Positions 42,001 to 48,000 of a stretch of 64,000 nucleotides of DNA are shown here, piece after piece (the stretch's first letter is position 1; each line of letters starts with the position of its first letter). The stretch is from a candidate division FCPU426 bacterium. GTDB lineage: Bacteria; Oederibacteriota; JAAXVQ01; JAUVAV01. A program made the position numbers. The stretch covers positions 1,533,076 through 1,597,075 of the forward strand of contig JBFLYH010000001.1 of assembly GCA_040756875.1 (NCBI GenBank), in the 5' to 3' direction.

Positions 42001-45000
42001 GAATTGATAGTAATGCTGCCCGCGGTTGGGATTCTCGCCGTACCGGCCGTCCTTCGGACGGCGGCAGGGCTCAATGTTGGCCGCCGCCCAGGGTTCGGGC
42101 CCCAGCACCCGCAGGAAGGTGAAAGGATTGAAAGTCGCCGCGCCTTTTTCCAAATCATAGGGCTGCACCAGCAAACAGCCCTGCCGGATCCAAAATTGCT
42201 CCAAGGAGCGGATAATGTCTTGAAAGGTCATCGTGGAGTCTCCTCAGCCTTTGAGCCCGGCGACCGCGCGCCGGAATTTGTCGCTGTGAAGGGTGCGCCC
42301 CAATTGGTACAACAGCGCCGCCTCCAGCGCAGCCGCCGCTTCTTCCCCGACCCGGGGCAGCACGTCCAAACGCCGCACCTTGTCCGCGGGAAGCTGCCGG
42401 ATTTTTTCCAGCATGGCCCGCGCCCCGGGCGAGAGCGGCAGCTCCGCCGCCGGTTCGCAGACCAGGCAGACCGCCCCGCCCCGGTCCGGAGCGTATTTCA
42501 TCGGGCCTTCGCTCCGCTGGCAGCAGACGCACCCTGCCAGGTGCGGGCGGTAGCCCAAAAGGTCCAGCAAGCGGTTCTCGAACCAAAGGCCCGCGACCAG
42601 GGGCGCCAGGCCTGTTTCCAGCAGGGCCAGCGCCTCCTTCAACAGCGAGAAAATCTCCGGCAACGGCTGGCGGTCCGGCAGCAGCCGGTCCACCAATTCG
42701 CTCCAGCGCGCCGCGCTGGCCAGGGCCTGCAGGTCGGATTTCAACCGGGGATAAGCGGTCACCAGCTGCCCCTGCGTCACCAGCATGAGGTCCTGGTGCT
42801 CGCGCCCGTGCAGCTGGAGTTCGGACAGGGAAAACAAGCCCACGCTCGCGGCCAAACGGCTTTGGCTGCGCCGCACGCCCTTGGCCAAGGCCCGGCATTT
42901 CCCTTCGCGGTCGGTCAGCAGCACCAGCACCCGGTCCGCTTCCGAAAACGGATAATGACGCAGGATAATGGCTGAGGTCCGCAGTAACGACACTGTGTGC
43001 AGATCCTTCCCGGCGAGTGGAGGCTTTCCCGGGCTAAAGCCGCGGGAATGGTCCGGGGGAATTAATAGTATCCTCCGCCCATGCTTCCGGATTCCGCGGC
43101 ATTAAAACCGTTCCAGACCGCGCCCGCGCCCCAGAGGAATACCATGGCCAGCAAGCCAAGAACAGCCAAAACCAGGCAGGTTTGGCCGAATTTTTTGGAT
43201 TCCGGATGGGTTTGCGCGGCGAAAATCAACCCCAGCACAAAACCGTAAAATGGCAGCAGCGACAAGGCGTAGGCCAAAAGTTTCAGACCGCCGCGCGGCA
43301 GCGCCAACCCGCCGCTTTCAGCGGCCGGCGCCGGCGTGGCTTTCCCGGTCGATGGCCGGGAAGCAACACGGATGCGCTGTGAATGTTTTTTACTTTCGGC
43401 TGGCATAATGGTTTCCAATATGGAAGAACCACGCCCCTCCCAAAGGAAGAGCGTGGTTCTTCCGTGAATGATTCAGGGGATACCGGCCGGCTTGGGGGTA
43501 ATCAGCCGCCAGGAACGTATCCGGTGATCCCGATACCGATGATGGCCAACAGCACTACGATCAAGAAGACGATCGCGATGGCGATGGCGACCGCGATGAT
43601 GGCTTTCGCGGTGGTCAGCTTATGGACTTCCTTCATGCCGATGACGGTTAAAATCAGGCCGTAAATCGAGCCCAGAACCGAAACGATCGGAATCCAGCCG
43701 ATGATATTCACCACATTGGCGTACGAAGCCAGGCGCAGCGTGCCTTCATAGGTCCCGGTGCCGCCGACAATGCGGGCGCAGATCATGAGCAGCAAGGCCG
43801 CCAGAAAAATGCTGATCACGACTGCGATGGGAGCAAATACGATTGCCAGAAAGCCCACACCCAAAGTGATGATGGTCAGTCCCACGCCCATAATCACAGC
43901 CGTAATGATGGCAAATACCAGCGGATCTTTGTATCCGCCGGTCGTGGGCATGGATTGGAAAAACTCCACTGGCTTGACGATGATCTTCTTACCGGTTTCG
44001 TAGTAATCCTTTAGAAATCCAGCCATTCTGTACCCCCTGTTCTTTATGAAGTGGTTGATTGTTTTTTAAGGCTATCATCGAATCCTGACAAAGTCAATAA
44101 AATTAATCGGGATGACCCACAAAAACCTTTGGTTTATAGGCTTGGAATGGGATTTGAAAGCACCCGGCCGGCGGCGGTAAAAGTCGGGCGGCGAAAACCG
44201 CGCATCTGCGTCGTAAGAACGTCCTTTAGAAACTCACTTTTTCACCGGTATATTAAATCTGCCTCGGTCAGCTGTTTTCCGGCATGTCCAGATCCAGAGG
44301 GGCATCCAGTTTTCGAATCTGTATTTTTTCGATGCGTTTACTGGTGGCAGCCACGACCGTCAAATGCAGGTCCTGATAAACCACCTGCTCGCCTTTTTTA
44401 GGCAGATGTCCCAGCAGGTGGGTCACAAATCCGCCCACCGTATTTACATCCTTCATGTCCGGCAGTTCGACTTCCAGGGCGGAATTGATCTCTTTGATGT
44501 CCGAAGAAGCGTCCACCAGCCATTGGGACAGCCCGATCTTTTCCAATTTGCGCTCTTCGGTGTCGTATTCATCCCGGATTTCGCCGACGATTTCTTCGAT
44601 CAAGTCCTCCAGGGTCACCAATCCCGAGGTCCCGCCGTATTCATCCACCACAATGGCCATGTGCAATTTGCCGCGCTGGAATTCATGCAGCAATTCGTCC
44701 ACTTTCTTGGTTTCGGGCACGAAGTAGGGCTGGCGCAAAACATCCTGCAGCATGATCAGTTCGCGGTTCTGAAGCAAGGGGATGATGTCCTTGGTATAAA
44801 CCACCCCGATGATATTGTCCACATTATTGCGATAGACCGGCATGCGGGAATACCCCGCCTGGATGATCTGGTCGATGATATGGTCCATCTGATCCAGGGC
44901 GTTGATGCACTCCATGCCCGTGCGCGGCACCATGACTTCACGCACCTGGGTCTCCCCCAGGTGGATGACGCCGTGAATCATCTTGTGTTCCTGGTCTTCG

Positions 45001-48000
45001 AACAGCCCCTCGTCCGCGCCAAGTTGTATGAGCGTACGGATCTCCTCCTCGGTCACCATCGGAATCGAGGCTCCGGGACGCAGGCCCAAAGGCCTGAGCA
45101 CCACGCTGGCTGCCTGCACCAGCAGGCGGCTCAAAGGATTGAGCACTTTGGCCAGGAACACCAGGGGCCGGATGAGAAAGAACGCGATGGCCTCGGAACG
45201 CTGGATGGCCAGCACTTTGGGCGTGACTTCGCCGAATATGATGATGACCAGGGTGACCAGGGCGGCCACCAGGGCGCCTAAATGCGCGCGATTCAGATGA
45301 AACAGTTCGGATATGTGCACCGCTAAAAAGGCCGCGATCGTCGTGGCGCTGATATTGACGGCATTGTTCAGGATGAGAATGGTGGTCAACATGCGGTTGG
45401 GGTCGTTTTTCCAGGCTTCCAAGGCGCGGCCGCGGGCACCGCCCTTCTCGATGGCTTTGGCCAGACGGCTGCGCCCCAACCCCATGAGCGCGGTTTCGCT
45501 GGCGGAAAAAACCGCCGAGAGGATCATCAACCCCGCCATGGCCAACAGTTCCAGCGTAATTTTAGGATCCAACAGGGTCACCTCGCTCGGCAGGCGGCGA
45601 GCAGCGCGGTTTCCATAGCCCGCATGCGCAAAGCCTGCGCGCGGCGTGCGTGATCATACCCCAGCAAGTGCAACAAGCCATGGATGACGATCAAATCCAA
45701 TTCGTGGAACGCGGCTTCCGCCCGCGCCTTGGCCTGCCGCTTGACCTGGGGCCATGAAATCACCAGATCTCCCAGCACATCGGTATCCGGGGGCAGCGGA
45801 TCTCCGGAACGGCGCTGCTCCCGCATGCCGAAGGACAAAATGTCCGTTGTCCGGTCCATTCCGCGATAGCGGCGGTTCAGAGCGCGAACCGCGGCGTCGG
45901 ACGTGACCAAGACCGAAACCTCCGCCTCAGGCAGGCGCAAACGCCGCAAACTACAAACCAGTAAACGCCGGATTCTCGCCGCCAGGCCCGCGGACGGCCG
46001 GGGAACTCGGATTTGGATGTTCATGTGGGAATGCCGCACCAGGCGGCCGGCATACCGCCGCACAGAGGTGCGTCAGAAAGGATGCGCCCAGGCGCAAGTG
46101 AGGCCTTCGCAATACCTGTAAAGGTTATGGATGGATGAACGCTGCCTTGCAAGCGCGAAATCAGACTCCTTCGCAACCGGCCGAGGTCTGCGGATGAAAA
46201 AAGGGACCCGAAACAGGTCCCTTTTTTCATCCGTTTTCCCCGAATCAATATTCAACCGGCAAAGTTCGGCGCGGTTTGGTATGGTGCTTATAGCGCGGCG
46301 TACGCTTGGCGTTCTCGATTGCCTGCGCCACTTCTTCCTGGCTAAACTCGCGCGAGATCGACAAATCCTGGCCGATTTCGATAATATCCGGATCCTCGAT
46401 CTGGTCGCGGTTGGCCTTGAAGATCAAGGGCCACTGAAAATTATCCCCATAGATATCGGATTGACCCGAAATATCCCACAGCGTGTCTCCCCTGACAACA
46501 GAATACCGCTGCATTTCCGGGGTCGCCTCCGGCGTCGGCTCGGCCATCGGCATGGGCGTGGGTTCAGGTTGCACCGCTTTTTTACCGCCGCAACCCATCA
46601 CTCCTGCCAAACCGCAAACCAAAACCGCCACCATCGTCCCTTTCAGCCATGCAGTTTTCTTCATTCCCTTTCACCTCCTTCCAACTCAGAGTGGATTGGG
46701 TCCCTTGTAGTCCGTGCAGTCCTACTTAAACGTCAGCGTTGCCATCCGGCACAAGACCAATGGTGCCCTTGTTTCCCCAGGACCGGACACAGGCACGTAA
46801 TCGTACTCGGGTTCGATCCCTATGCGACCCGACAGCAGTAAATCATCTTTACCTGCCGAACGGGAATTGATGTCCCACACCGCAAATCCTATGCCGAAGG
46901 TCGCTCCCACCAAGCCTCCGAGCCCGATCCCGATGGTGAAATCTTCGGGATCCTTGTCCCGCATATACGGCAGGGTTGCGATCACCAGCCCGAGCATCGC
47001 GCCGATGCCGGTGCCGCCCACCGTGTATTCCGAAAAAGTAAACCCGGTATCCTGCCGGTCCGTGCTGATCTCGTAGATGCCGATCCCCGTGCCCAGCACT
47101 GCGCCGGTCAAAAACCCGTATACCGCTCCGGTCAGCAGGTAATCGGGATTGTAATTGTTATCCAAACCATACGCCAGCGTGCCGGCGGACAACCCAACCA
47201 TCAAGCCGGCGCCGGCGCCGCCTAGGATATTATTGGCGATCATTGGACCCCGGGCAGGCCCAGCTGACACCGGAATCGCGGTACTCCAGAAAGAAAAAAA
47301 TAAAAATATCAACGTGATTGCAGCTTTATTGTTCACAGGTTCCTTGAGTTCGATTTTAAGTTATGGGTAAATTATCACGTTAATTTCGTTCTTGTCAAGC
47401 CTTAGTTGGTTTATTCATATTTCCCTGGTAATTGATGCCGTCTTCCGGCTGAAAATAAGGCTTTTTACTCGGTTACTTTCAGGTGAAGCTCGCGCAGTTG
47501 ATCAGGGTGCAGCAAGCTGGGCGCGCCGGAAAGCAGATCCTGCGCCCTCTGCGTCTTGGGAAAGGCGATGACATCCCTGATGGTGCGCTCGCCGGCCAGT
47601 AACATGACCAGCCGGTCCAGCCCGATGGCCAACCCTCCATGGGGGGGCGCGCCGTATTCGAAAGCCTCCATGAGAAACCCGAATTTTTCCCTGGCCTCGT
47701 CGTCGGAAATGCCGATGAGCTTGAAAATCCGCGCCTGCAGGCCGGATTGATGGATACGGACGCTGCCGGAAGCGATTTCGCAGCCGTTCAGCACCAGGTC
47801 AAAGCTTTGGGAACGCACCTGGCCCGGATCCGCGTCCAACTGGTGGATGTCCTCGGGATGGGGCGCTGTAAAGGGATGGTGTTCAGGATCCCAGCGCCGG
47901 TTGGCTGCATCATATTGAAAGAGGGGGAAATCCACGATCCAGGAAAGATGCCATTGGTCTTTGGGAATCAGCCCCAGTTGGTCGCCGATCTGCAGCCGCA

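Follow-up and report, generated by a model that had tools for sequence, protein, structure and literature searches.

Two 30S assembly factors, Era and RimP, are absent from all 15 studied genomes of the class represented by the window, which is the whole 64,000-nt stretch of DNA analysed from a candidate division FCPU426 bacterium. The era gene has truly been deleted from a ybeY–corC–era–small membrane gene–recO cluster, and rimP has been excised from between nusA and the operon promoter with its rimP-leader terminator. E. coli cannot do without Era, and discussions of the factor treat it as close to indispensable. Our preferred reading, to which we assign a probability of about 0.6, is that both genes were deleted outright without replacement and that the 30S subunit is completed on the remaining factors, with slower or leakier assembly. 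The survey's finding that the class builds and matures its 30S subunits without the two factors follows from their joint absence, which withstood every test, while the maturation itself is something we infer.

The class sample comprised 15 genomes of 2.2–3.9 Mb, 12 of them at least 90% complete, and the phylum sample 99 genomes, namely these 15 and 84 others. In the window the era slot lies on the minus strand, and its genes, with families assigned by profile matches, are arranged as follows.

46245..46664, minus strand: LysM-domain protein gene, directly before ybeY
45578..46063, minus strand: ybeY (TIGR00043, E 7.6e-36), encoding a 16S 3′-end maturation factor and known Era partner
44268..45581, minus strand: corC/hlyC-type membrane protein gene (NCBIfam GldE/CorC-like match, below cut-offs)
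44027..44267, no strand: intergenic gap of 241 nt, 3′ of corC, the start point of era in family f8
43502..44026, minus strand: Yip1-domain membrane protein gene, 174 aa (PF04893, E 6.5e-19), occupying the era position
43062..43418, minus strand: small membrane protein gene, 118 aa, homolog of the f8 gene between era and recO
42244..42993, minus strand: recO (TIGR00613, E 4.2e-42), the customary downstream neighbour of era
41242..42231, minus strand: glyQ, then glyS, customary era-cluster neighbours

By synteny, the corC/hlyC-type gene adjoins era on its upstream side in both f8 and f9, and glyQ and glyS are among the era-cluster neighbours in a published synteny list (PMC10582724, Fig. 1 legend). 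The small membrane protein gene, which matched the f8 genes at two loci (L058 and L059; phmmer E ~2e-4) and gave no alignment with its f8 counterparts in pairwise BLASTP, forms the right edge of the era slot. The phoH/ybeZ gene, present between the LysM gene and ybeY in most other phylum families, is absent there, and ybeY is retained in 15/15 class genomes. Since the gaps between corC, the Yip1 gene, the 118-aa gene and recO measure only 241, 83 and 68 nt, there is no space for a 0.9-kb era, and no era remnant was found in the 241-nt gap. The reported absence of era from its ybeY–recO slot was thus confirmed, the slot being contiguous in the window, with small gaps and a Yip1 gene instead. 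Across the class, the order corC, none or one extra gene, yip1 and recO was found in 11 of the 15 genomes; three had aspS–yip1–recO with ybeY–corC relocated elsewhere, and the relocated cluster, read in two of these three, contained no era; in one genome the era-slot contig was cut.

Nor was Era found elsewhere in the class, as the survey had also claimed. Full-length Era (TIGR00436) was detected in 0/15 class genomes, with 10/14 controls above the cut-off, and the best of the matches listed spanned positions ~2–168 of the model, in Der-length frames (449- and 451-aa ORFs included). Inspection of the PF07650 matches revealed no Era-type KH domain in any of the 15 genomes; all were uS3, NusA, KhpA, PNPase, RNase Y and KhpB-sized proteins, labelled from position and ORF length and partly by our own reading. 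No protein combining an Era G-domain with a C-terminal type II KH domain was present in the 15 genomes. A hidden or split Era was rejected as well, because unfiltered profile searches of the window genome returned only Der, HydF, MnmE, ObgE, HflX, FeoB and translation GTPases (named by motif reading), and only uS3 for the KH part.

RimP was likewise absent, both from the slot before nusA and genome-wide, in agreement with the survey; the slot had been placed at C2:314797, which is the nusA end, and lies instead at ~C2:316300–316480. RimP_N matched 0/15 class genomes at E ≤ 0.1 and 10/14 controls, and the RimP C-domain was above the cut-off in none of five class genomes tested. A full-length profile of 30 RimPs gave a best E of 0.09 across the 15 class genomes, compared with 6e-45 and 3e-43 for two RimP-bearing relatives, and an 81-sequence profile run unfiltered against all 41,759 six-frame ORFs of the window genome gave a best E of 0.37, compared with 1e-30 or better for each of four held-out divergent RimPs. 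A hidden RimP was rejected, as three profile types were blank while the same models find RimP in sister families. The deletion point itself is visible in the leader of the nusA–infB operon, a hairpin with a G-rich 5′ arm, a C-rich 3′ arm and a U-tract, which is located ~70–215 nt before nusA in 15/15 class genomes and in all of them leaves too little space for a rimP gene. At RimP-bearing loci the hairpin stands ~510–780 nt before nusA, one rimP length further (13/22 loci scored for the pattern), while f8 and f9 also have the short distance, in 5/7 by pattern and in two more by eye. In the window genome this hairpin is the sole strict pattern match, folds at z −3.0 and is preceded by a sigma70-like promoter; an Rfam search at 7 loci gave no match at E ≤ 1. 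The G-rich/C-rich hairpin and U-tract are shared with the published rimP-leader attenuator of the rimP–nusA–infB operon (Naville and Gautheret 2010, PMC2965389), but in the class the leader runs straight into nusA, with rimP gone.

Among the other assembly factors, RimM was found in 15/15 class genomes, RbfA in 14/15 (in the exception, G024, the nusA contig ends before the rbfA position) and KsgA in 5/5 tested, and Der and ObgE were present in the window genome. The survey's statement that RbfA, RimM, RsgA and Der are present thus holds except for RsgA, which occurs in only 9/15 class genomes, that of the window included. Across the 99 phylum genomes, Era was detected in 43, RimP in 75, RimM in 55, RbfA in 95 and YbeY in 90. 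Exactly one of Era, RimP and RimM was kept in 55 genomes (RimM only in 15, RimP only in 36, Era only in 4, one of these four probably misbinned), and all three were missing from only one, which is 84% complete. The count of 43 still includes G084, a member of the Era-less f14–23 group, whose Era is 80% identical to that of Elusimicrobiales and ~30% to phylum Eras and was treated as misbinned or transferred. Families f8 and f9 lack RimP too (7/7), and in sister groups it is RimM that is missing. The two losses are therefore class-wide, as had been noted, but neither is private to the class, with Era undetected in 56/99 phylum genomes and RimP gone from f8 and f9. Calling the factors near-universal suits cultured bacteria, with era in 97.3% and rimP in 92.3% of 15,274 non-CPR genomes (PMC12641178 supplement, which gives these bacteria no per-genome presence table), but their joint absence was already tabulated for Patescibacteria.

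The class groups with f8/f9 in two trees and in the best topology of an AU test, and it shares with them the loss of phoH from the ybeY slot; two other trees placed it elsewhere with support 0.99, and one further tree left its placement unresolved. In the AU test (LG+F+G4; 5,000 resamples, below the number recommended for the program), grouping the class with f15–23 was not rejected (p 0.30), a class sister to f10–12, the topology of one tree, had p 0.02, and a single Era loss shared by the class, f4–7 and f15–23 was rejected (p 0.008). Depending on the tree, a single RimP loss probably took place in the common ancestor of the class and f8/f9; Era was likely lost after RimP on the stem of the class, and independently in other lineages.

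The 16S rRNA and the 30S proteins checked in the class are conventional. The 16S 3′ end GGATCACCTCCTT was found in 19/19 readable 3′ ends, five of them from the class, and the Era-binding site is intact. Class 16S rRNA is full length (1555–1569 nt in 4 class genomes), and no platform column separated 12 Era-less from 6 Era-bearing genes, with none in h23/h24. Loss of the Era rRNA site or a remodelled platform was rejected, the 3′ tail and platform helices being canonical. The 30S proteins found in the window genome were those of the S10–spc–alpha cluster, bS1, uS2, uS9 and uS15 (these four identified by motif) and bS6, and among the class genomes tested bS18 and bS20 occurred in 5/5 and bS21 in 4/5; missing platform proteins were rejected, as all were found except bS21, undetected in G030. 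SD-like motifs precede 58% of 957 long genes, compared with 13% further upstream.

That era and rimP had moved, diverged past detection or been left out of metagenome bins is highly improbable. All 15 class genomes are draft assemblies (the genome under study has 7 contigs and five N-gaps), the genome-wide searches gave scores only to candidates passing a loose first look, and even NusA went undetected in 3/99 phylum genomes, which would allow for an artefact; however, the region upstream of nusA was assembled without gaps in 15/15 class genomes and that upstream of recO in 14/15, the same models had no difficulty in finding Era and RimP in sister families, the unfiltered local search came back empty, and RimM, YbeY, NusA, RecO and uS12 were each detected in 15/15. 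It is also quite doubtful that a non-orthologous protein took over, whether the Yip1 protein in the era slot, DUF503/YlxP of the nusA operon or KhpA/KhpB. The Yip1 gene would fit such a role in being confined to the class, with 14/15 genomes carrying it (74–93% identity in 13, 63% in one) and the other 84 phylum genomes having no close relative, only distant matches of 25–27% identity in 5/84; it is better conserved within the class than RecO (43–81%), YbeY (48–64%) and AspS (69–86%), and in one genus it still stands beside recO although ybeY–corC moved away. The membrane protein it encodes, however, is of the multi-pass type, is hydrophobic over nearly its entire length and has no GTPase, KH or Sm domain, the other Era-less phylum families have no such gene, and DUF503 and KhpA are general neighbours, found also beside RimP or Era in relatives.

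A change in the ribosome itself, with small substitutions in uS12, uS5, uS11, RbfA or 16S rRNA stabilising the central pseudoknot and platform, seems unlikely, and it may add to the preferred reading rather than exclude it. Nine 16S columns set 4 class genes apart from 14 others, but h23/h24 hold no separating column. Two of 127 uS12 columns (E70 and L119, window-genome numbering) carry residues that the class has in common with f8 and that none of 22 RimP-bearing genomes has, and 4 of 1,781 columns follow the same class + f8 pattern in a comparison set of uS7, EF-G, NusA and IF2; yet RimP-less f9 has neither uS12 residue, and E. coli uS12 has Glu at the first of the two positions with RimP nonetheless retained. 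Co-evolution of uS12 with RimP loss came out weak, and mere shared ancestry, if the class and f8 are related, reads better. Strand beta1 of uS12, with which RimP pairs (PMC8177701), appears unchanged in the class, and uS5 mutations suppress RbfA loss in E. coli but gave no rescue of a rimP deletion (PMC4509935). A possible, if tentative, reading is that, where the genome is unreduced and the ribosome canonical, the early 30S factors Era, RimP and RimM act as interchangeable routes and not as a fixed chain, any one of them sufficing with RbfA and YbeY (probably also KsgA), and that RbfA or the platform of the class bypasses Era; its basis is the occurrence of all three single-factor states in the phylum, with only one genome having none.

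Under outright deletion, the preferred reading, Era and RimP would accelerate and guide folding along a path that depends on neither for its completion. RbfA would load without a prior Era step, its KH domain binding the same h45/3′-tail region as Era, and together with YbeY would close the platform; RimM would handle head maturation, uS12 and uS5 would dock without RimP, and KsgA would remain a late checkpoint. The cost, slower or leakier assembly, could be tolerated by an anaerobe that presumably grows slowly, as hydrogenase-related genes suggest. Era and RbfA bind in succession at overlapping sites on h45, and losses of rbfA, rsgA and ybeY are suppressed when Era is overexpressed, the published direction being Era for rbfA loss, not RbfA for era loss (PMC10582724). 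In favour of such a path, Era-depleted particles re-route folding (10.1101/525360) and E. coli survives a rimP deletion (PMC9032327). In E. coli, however, none of the known factors suppressed that deletion (PMC9032327), and the platform needs Era to fold (10.1101/525360), so the known factors need not be simply redundant. RsgA is the RbfA releaser, and its absence from 6/15 class genomes counts against the proposed mechanism.

Flexibility in assembly-factor sets has so far been described mainly for bacteria with shrunken genomes, and a literature search, with subscription papers mostly outside its scope, turned up no study of such factors in the phylum. We found neither a new molecule nor a new mechanism. 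The class separates factor loss from ribosome simplification, with its 3-Mb genomes, full-length 16S rRNA and intact Era-binding tail. The phylum offers a natural experiment to show where assembly really needs help, since its sister families retain different single factors and the points of deletion can be seen. RbfA, YbeY, uS11, uS12 and uS5 provide candidate sequences for an Era bypass. As era, rimP and rimM all belong to the BAC120 marker set (PMC12641178 Supplementary Table 1), their absence in the phylum is to be read as biology, not incompleteness.

Joint loss of Era and RimP is not unique to the class and looks recurrent. In Patescibacteria (CPR; Amikura et al. 2025, PMC12641178), whose supplement shows no Firestonebacteria, FCPU426 or Goldbacteria entries, both are absent in 405/505 genomes, as in the class; era is reported in 19.4%, rimP in 0.4% and rimM in 0.4%, in class-specific, complementary factor patterns. 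That study, however, describes genomes of 0.5–1.5 Mb, compared with 2.2–3.9 Mb here, with shortened rRNA helices and missing r-proteins where the class has full-length 16S and keeps the tested r-proteins, and with RimM absent and RbfA, Der and ObgE often lost where the class keeps RimM, YbeY and, in 14/15, RbfA, and the window genome has Der and ObgE. Era-less Dependentiae, Chlamydia and most CPR are described as secondary losses, as here, in section 5 of the 2023 Era review (PMC10582724), which states that Era dependence was overcome only by extremely genome-reduced groups with simplified ribosomes; the unreduced genomes of the class contradict this statement, and the review's Fig. 1 legend, in noting that era occurs patchily in Planctomycetota, Elusimicrobiota and Synergistota, hints at loss outside reduced genomes. 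In Mollicutes (Grosjean et al. 2014, PMC4014445), RbfA occurs in all, RimM and RimP in few, and three hemoplasmas lack Era and RsgA, but these are host-dependent genomes mostly <1 Mb, unlike the class. Dehalococcoidia (1.4–2.3 Mb, completeness not given), a group that includes cultured members, look similar in our analysis, with Era above the cut-off in 0/5 genomes and only G-domain matches in 396–675-aa frames; at Chloroflexota loci no rimP stood before nusA in 10/10, a count of the slot only, not genome-wide. Unlike in the CPR case, the deletion points are visible here through sister lineages that keep each gene.

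Gene order in the window (C1:1533076-1597075) was read around the position where era would be expected between ybeY and recO.

Minus strand, in this order: lysM, ybeY, corC, Yip1-domain gene, 118-aa membrane gene, recO, glyQ, glyS
43502-44026: Yip1-domain gene
46064-46244: slot before ybeY, without phoH/ybeZ

Gaps within the corC-recO stretch are at most 241 nt throughout. In family f8 (genome G033, Era confirmed), the order is lysM, ybeY, corC, era, a small membrane gene and recO, and that small gene and the window's 118-aa gene are homologues (phmmer E ~2e-4 with both f8 loci), a relationship that pairwise BLASTP missed. 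The Yip1 gene therefore occupies the former place of era. The order corC-yip1-recO is found in 11 of the 15 class genomes (families f1 and f2; 2.2-3.9 Mb, 12 of them at least 90% complete); in three others ybeY-corC is relocated with yip1-recO kept, and in one the contig is cut. The Yip1 gene product matches 39 database proteins (P0001-P0039) at 62-96% identity, the next ones reaching only 33-38%, and the gene recurs in class relatives (loci L043-L057) and is more conserved than the neighbouring housekeeping genes; on these comparisons it is a signature of the class. One Yip1 relative bears the name Candidatus Firestonebacteria, as does a record (L066) placed within the class by a NusA+IF2 tree; Goldbacteria is the label of a protein from one f20 genome. 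Genome G022 carries the recO region twice (C3 and C12; L053, L054) with identical gene calls. Toward the contig end of the window (56001-64000), GC skew drops to −0.11 and −0.29, suggesting repetitive or unusual sequence.

The loss of era from this slot, as the survey's finding had it, was thus borne out, and so was its absence elsewhere. TIGR00436 detected Era in 0/15 class genomes, the best class matches among those listed being Der G-domains, and KH_2 searches found no Era-like KH protein in any of the 15. An unfiltered search of the genome under study (G000, a 3.22-Mb draft in 7 contigs, completeness score 100%) with profiles from 13 phylum Eras led from the G-domain to other GTPases and from the KH part to uS3 only (E 0.57). 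Among 27 small-GTPase matches in G000, no EngB/YihA or RbgA/YlqF was recognisable by motifs and lengths. Across the 99 genomes of the phylum set, TIGR00436 detected full-length Era in 38 and fragments in 5 more; era is split across two frames in G048 (C53) and holds three TGA stops in G054 (C9), by error or decay. The Era of G084 (C203, L198; an f20 bin, 61% complete) is 80% identical to an Elusimicrobiales protein and may be either a misbinned contig or a transfer.

RimP profiles found no RimP in the class; the slot before nusA was read on contig C2 of G000.

C2:314797-316296, minus strand: nusA
C2:316443-316471: sigma70-like promoter upstream of nusA
from C2:316414: hairpin and U-tract, 118 nt before the nusA ATG

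This hairpin fits the rimP-leader, the head of rimP-nusA-infB operons, as described in PMC2965389. It lies ~70-215 nt ahead of nusA in 15/15 class genomes, whereas in 13 of 22 scored RimP-bearing loci it stands ~510-780 nt before nusA, ahead of rimP (the other 9 gave no pattern match, and 3 further loci were unscorable). Thus, the rimP frame was removed and the operon control region kept, and the reported lack of rimP, in its slot and elsewhere, stands. In f8/f9 the hairpin again adjoins nusA, in 5 of 7 loci by pattern and in 2 by eye. Upstream of nusA, loci L024-L036 have a gene for polymerase III alpha that contains PHP and zinc-ribbon parts, which we label PolC-like, with murB inserted in reverse. 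Most class genomes retain, further upstream, the polymerase III gene that stands ahead of rimP in f12, and the reversed murB lies between; in genus g1 a hydrogenase-type cluster takes this place. A PolC-like gene upstream of nusA occurs in Firmicutes as well. Contig C81 of G018 has two RimP_N matches 3 kb apart.

Checking the rest of the phylum, we found that the absences do hold for the class, but do not mark it alone: RimP, present in 75/99 genomes, is also missing in f8/f9, and Era was found in only 43/99. Of the other factors claimed for the class, RimM was recovered in 15/15 genomes and RsgA in only 9/15. RimM occurs in 55/99 genomes (f4-7 0/13, f14-23 0/24, f8 1/5); rpsP, with or without a small KH gene, runs directly into trmD in 10/10 RimM-less genomes checked, rimM being cleanly missing from the operon (L203-L212; f4-f8, f15, f18, f22, f23). 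Era and RimM are both missing from the 37 genomes of f4-7 and f14-23, with one Era doubtful. Of Era, RimP and RimM, 32 of the 99 genomes have three, 11 two, 36 RimP only, 15 RimM only, 4 Era only and one none (G037, 84% complete, in which ybeY is missing as well). Detection of RbfA extends to 95/99 genomes and that of YbeY to 90/99. RsgA occurs in 27/99, a patchiness suggesting repeated gain or loss; that of G000 (C1:61439-62536, L309) is a 365-aa form amid accessory-looking genes. In 14 loci of other families phoH/ybeZ lies before ybeY; it does so in none of the loci examined for the class, f8 and f9, and is missing from the slot in the f10 and f23 loci too; a genome search of G000 gave a partial match only, in a 438-aa frame (C1:1531106-1532419).

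Five trees partially disagree on the placement of the class. NusA+IF2 joined it with f4-7 and f15-23 (support 0.99). Without an outgroup, 28 proteins joined it with f10-12 (0.99; coverage of f8/f9 poor), RpoB+RpoC with f8/f9 (0.99), a seven-protein LG tree did not separate the class, f8/f9 and f15-23, and the C20 mixture model on those seven proteins from 17 genomes joined it to f8/f9 (SH-aLRT 97, quick search). The AU test, likewise without outgroup, favoured class + f8/f9 (p 0.78) and did not reject class + f15-23 (0.30); two other placements were rejected (0.008 and 0.02). The favoured tree is in line with the gene order common to the class and f8/f9, namely recO preceded by the small membrane gene, the lack of phoH and the leader placed next to nusA. 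The best reading is that RimP was lost once and Era afterwards, on the stem of the class, and that f4-7/f14-23, f10 and f13 each lost Era separately.

As to how 30S subunits are matured, no replacement for Era or RimP was identified. We favour, at a probability of roughly 0.6, a factor-light assembly path that would run on RbfA, RimM, YbeY and KsgA, the last present in 5/5 genomes tested. In the literature, Era and RbfA occupy overlapping helix 45 sites in turn (PMC10582724), Era-depleted particles re-route folding but reach no finished platform (10.1101/525360), and E. coli tolerates RimP loss, which other factors do not suppress (PMC9032327). Compensation built into the ribosome itself is unlikely, and a takeover by an unknown protein slightly more so; for the latter the Yip1 protein would be a candidate, being class-specific and strongly conserved, although it is a hydrophobic membrane protein. 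An artefact is very improbable, and the absence of Era and RimP from the class is real and well delimited.

The ribosome of the class appears conventional: at the 3′ end, 16S reads GGATCACCTCCTT in 19/19 readable genes of 20 fetched, 5 of them from the class, whose 16S genes measure 1555-1569 nt; no column of helices 23 and 24 separates Era-less from Era-bearing genes; the 30S proteins tested are present (several named by motif or position); and SD-like motifs are fourfold enriched before genes. In uS12, the strand with which RimP pairs (PMC8177701) is conserved, judged by eye. bS21 was not detected in G030 (98% complete) and was found in 4 other class genomes. In G000, a long N-terminal part rich in Pro, Ala and Glu is found in both bS1 (C1:19612-21627) and IF2, and PNPase (C1:547174-549297) has a seven-glycine run near residue 53. 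The genome has 60% GC; proteins of its mnmE-rsmG-yidC-dnaA region (C2:812000-823000) differ from those encoded elsewhere in it by their high content of Ile, Lys and Asn.

No paper on these assembly factors in this phylum was found. Joint absence of Era and RimP is described for 405/505 Patescibacteria genomes in PMC12641178, and Mollicutes keep RbfA in a similar way (PMC4014445). The Era review restricts loss to extremely reduced groups and notes patchiness in three phyla (PMC10582724). In our searches, Era was absent from 5/5 Dehalococcoidia genomes (G099-G103), and rimP was absent before nusA, by slot only, in 10/10 Chloroflexota loci (L088, L092, L100, L115, L126, L128, L130, L133, L135, L142); it precedes nusA in 55/74 nusA loci from other phyla. 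Dehalococcoidia thus appear to be, beside this class, another candidate outside CPR for having lost both genes, a pattern that speaks against uniqueness of the class.
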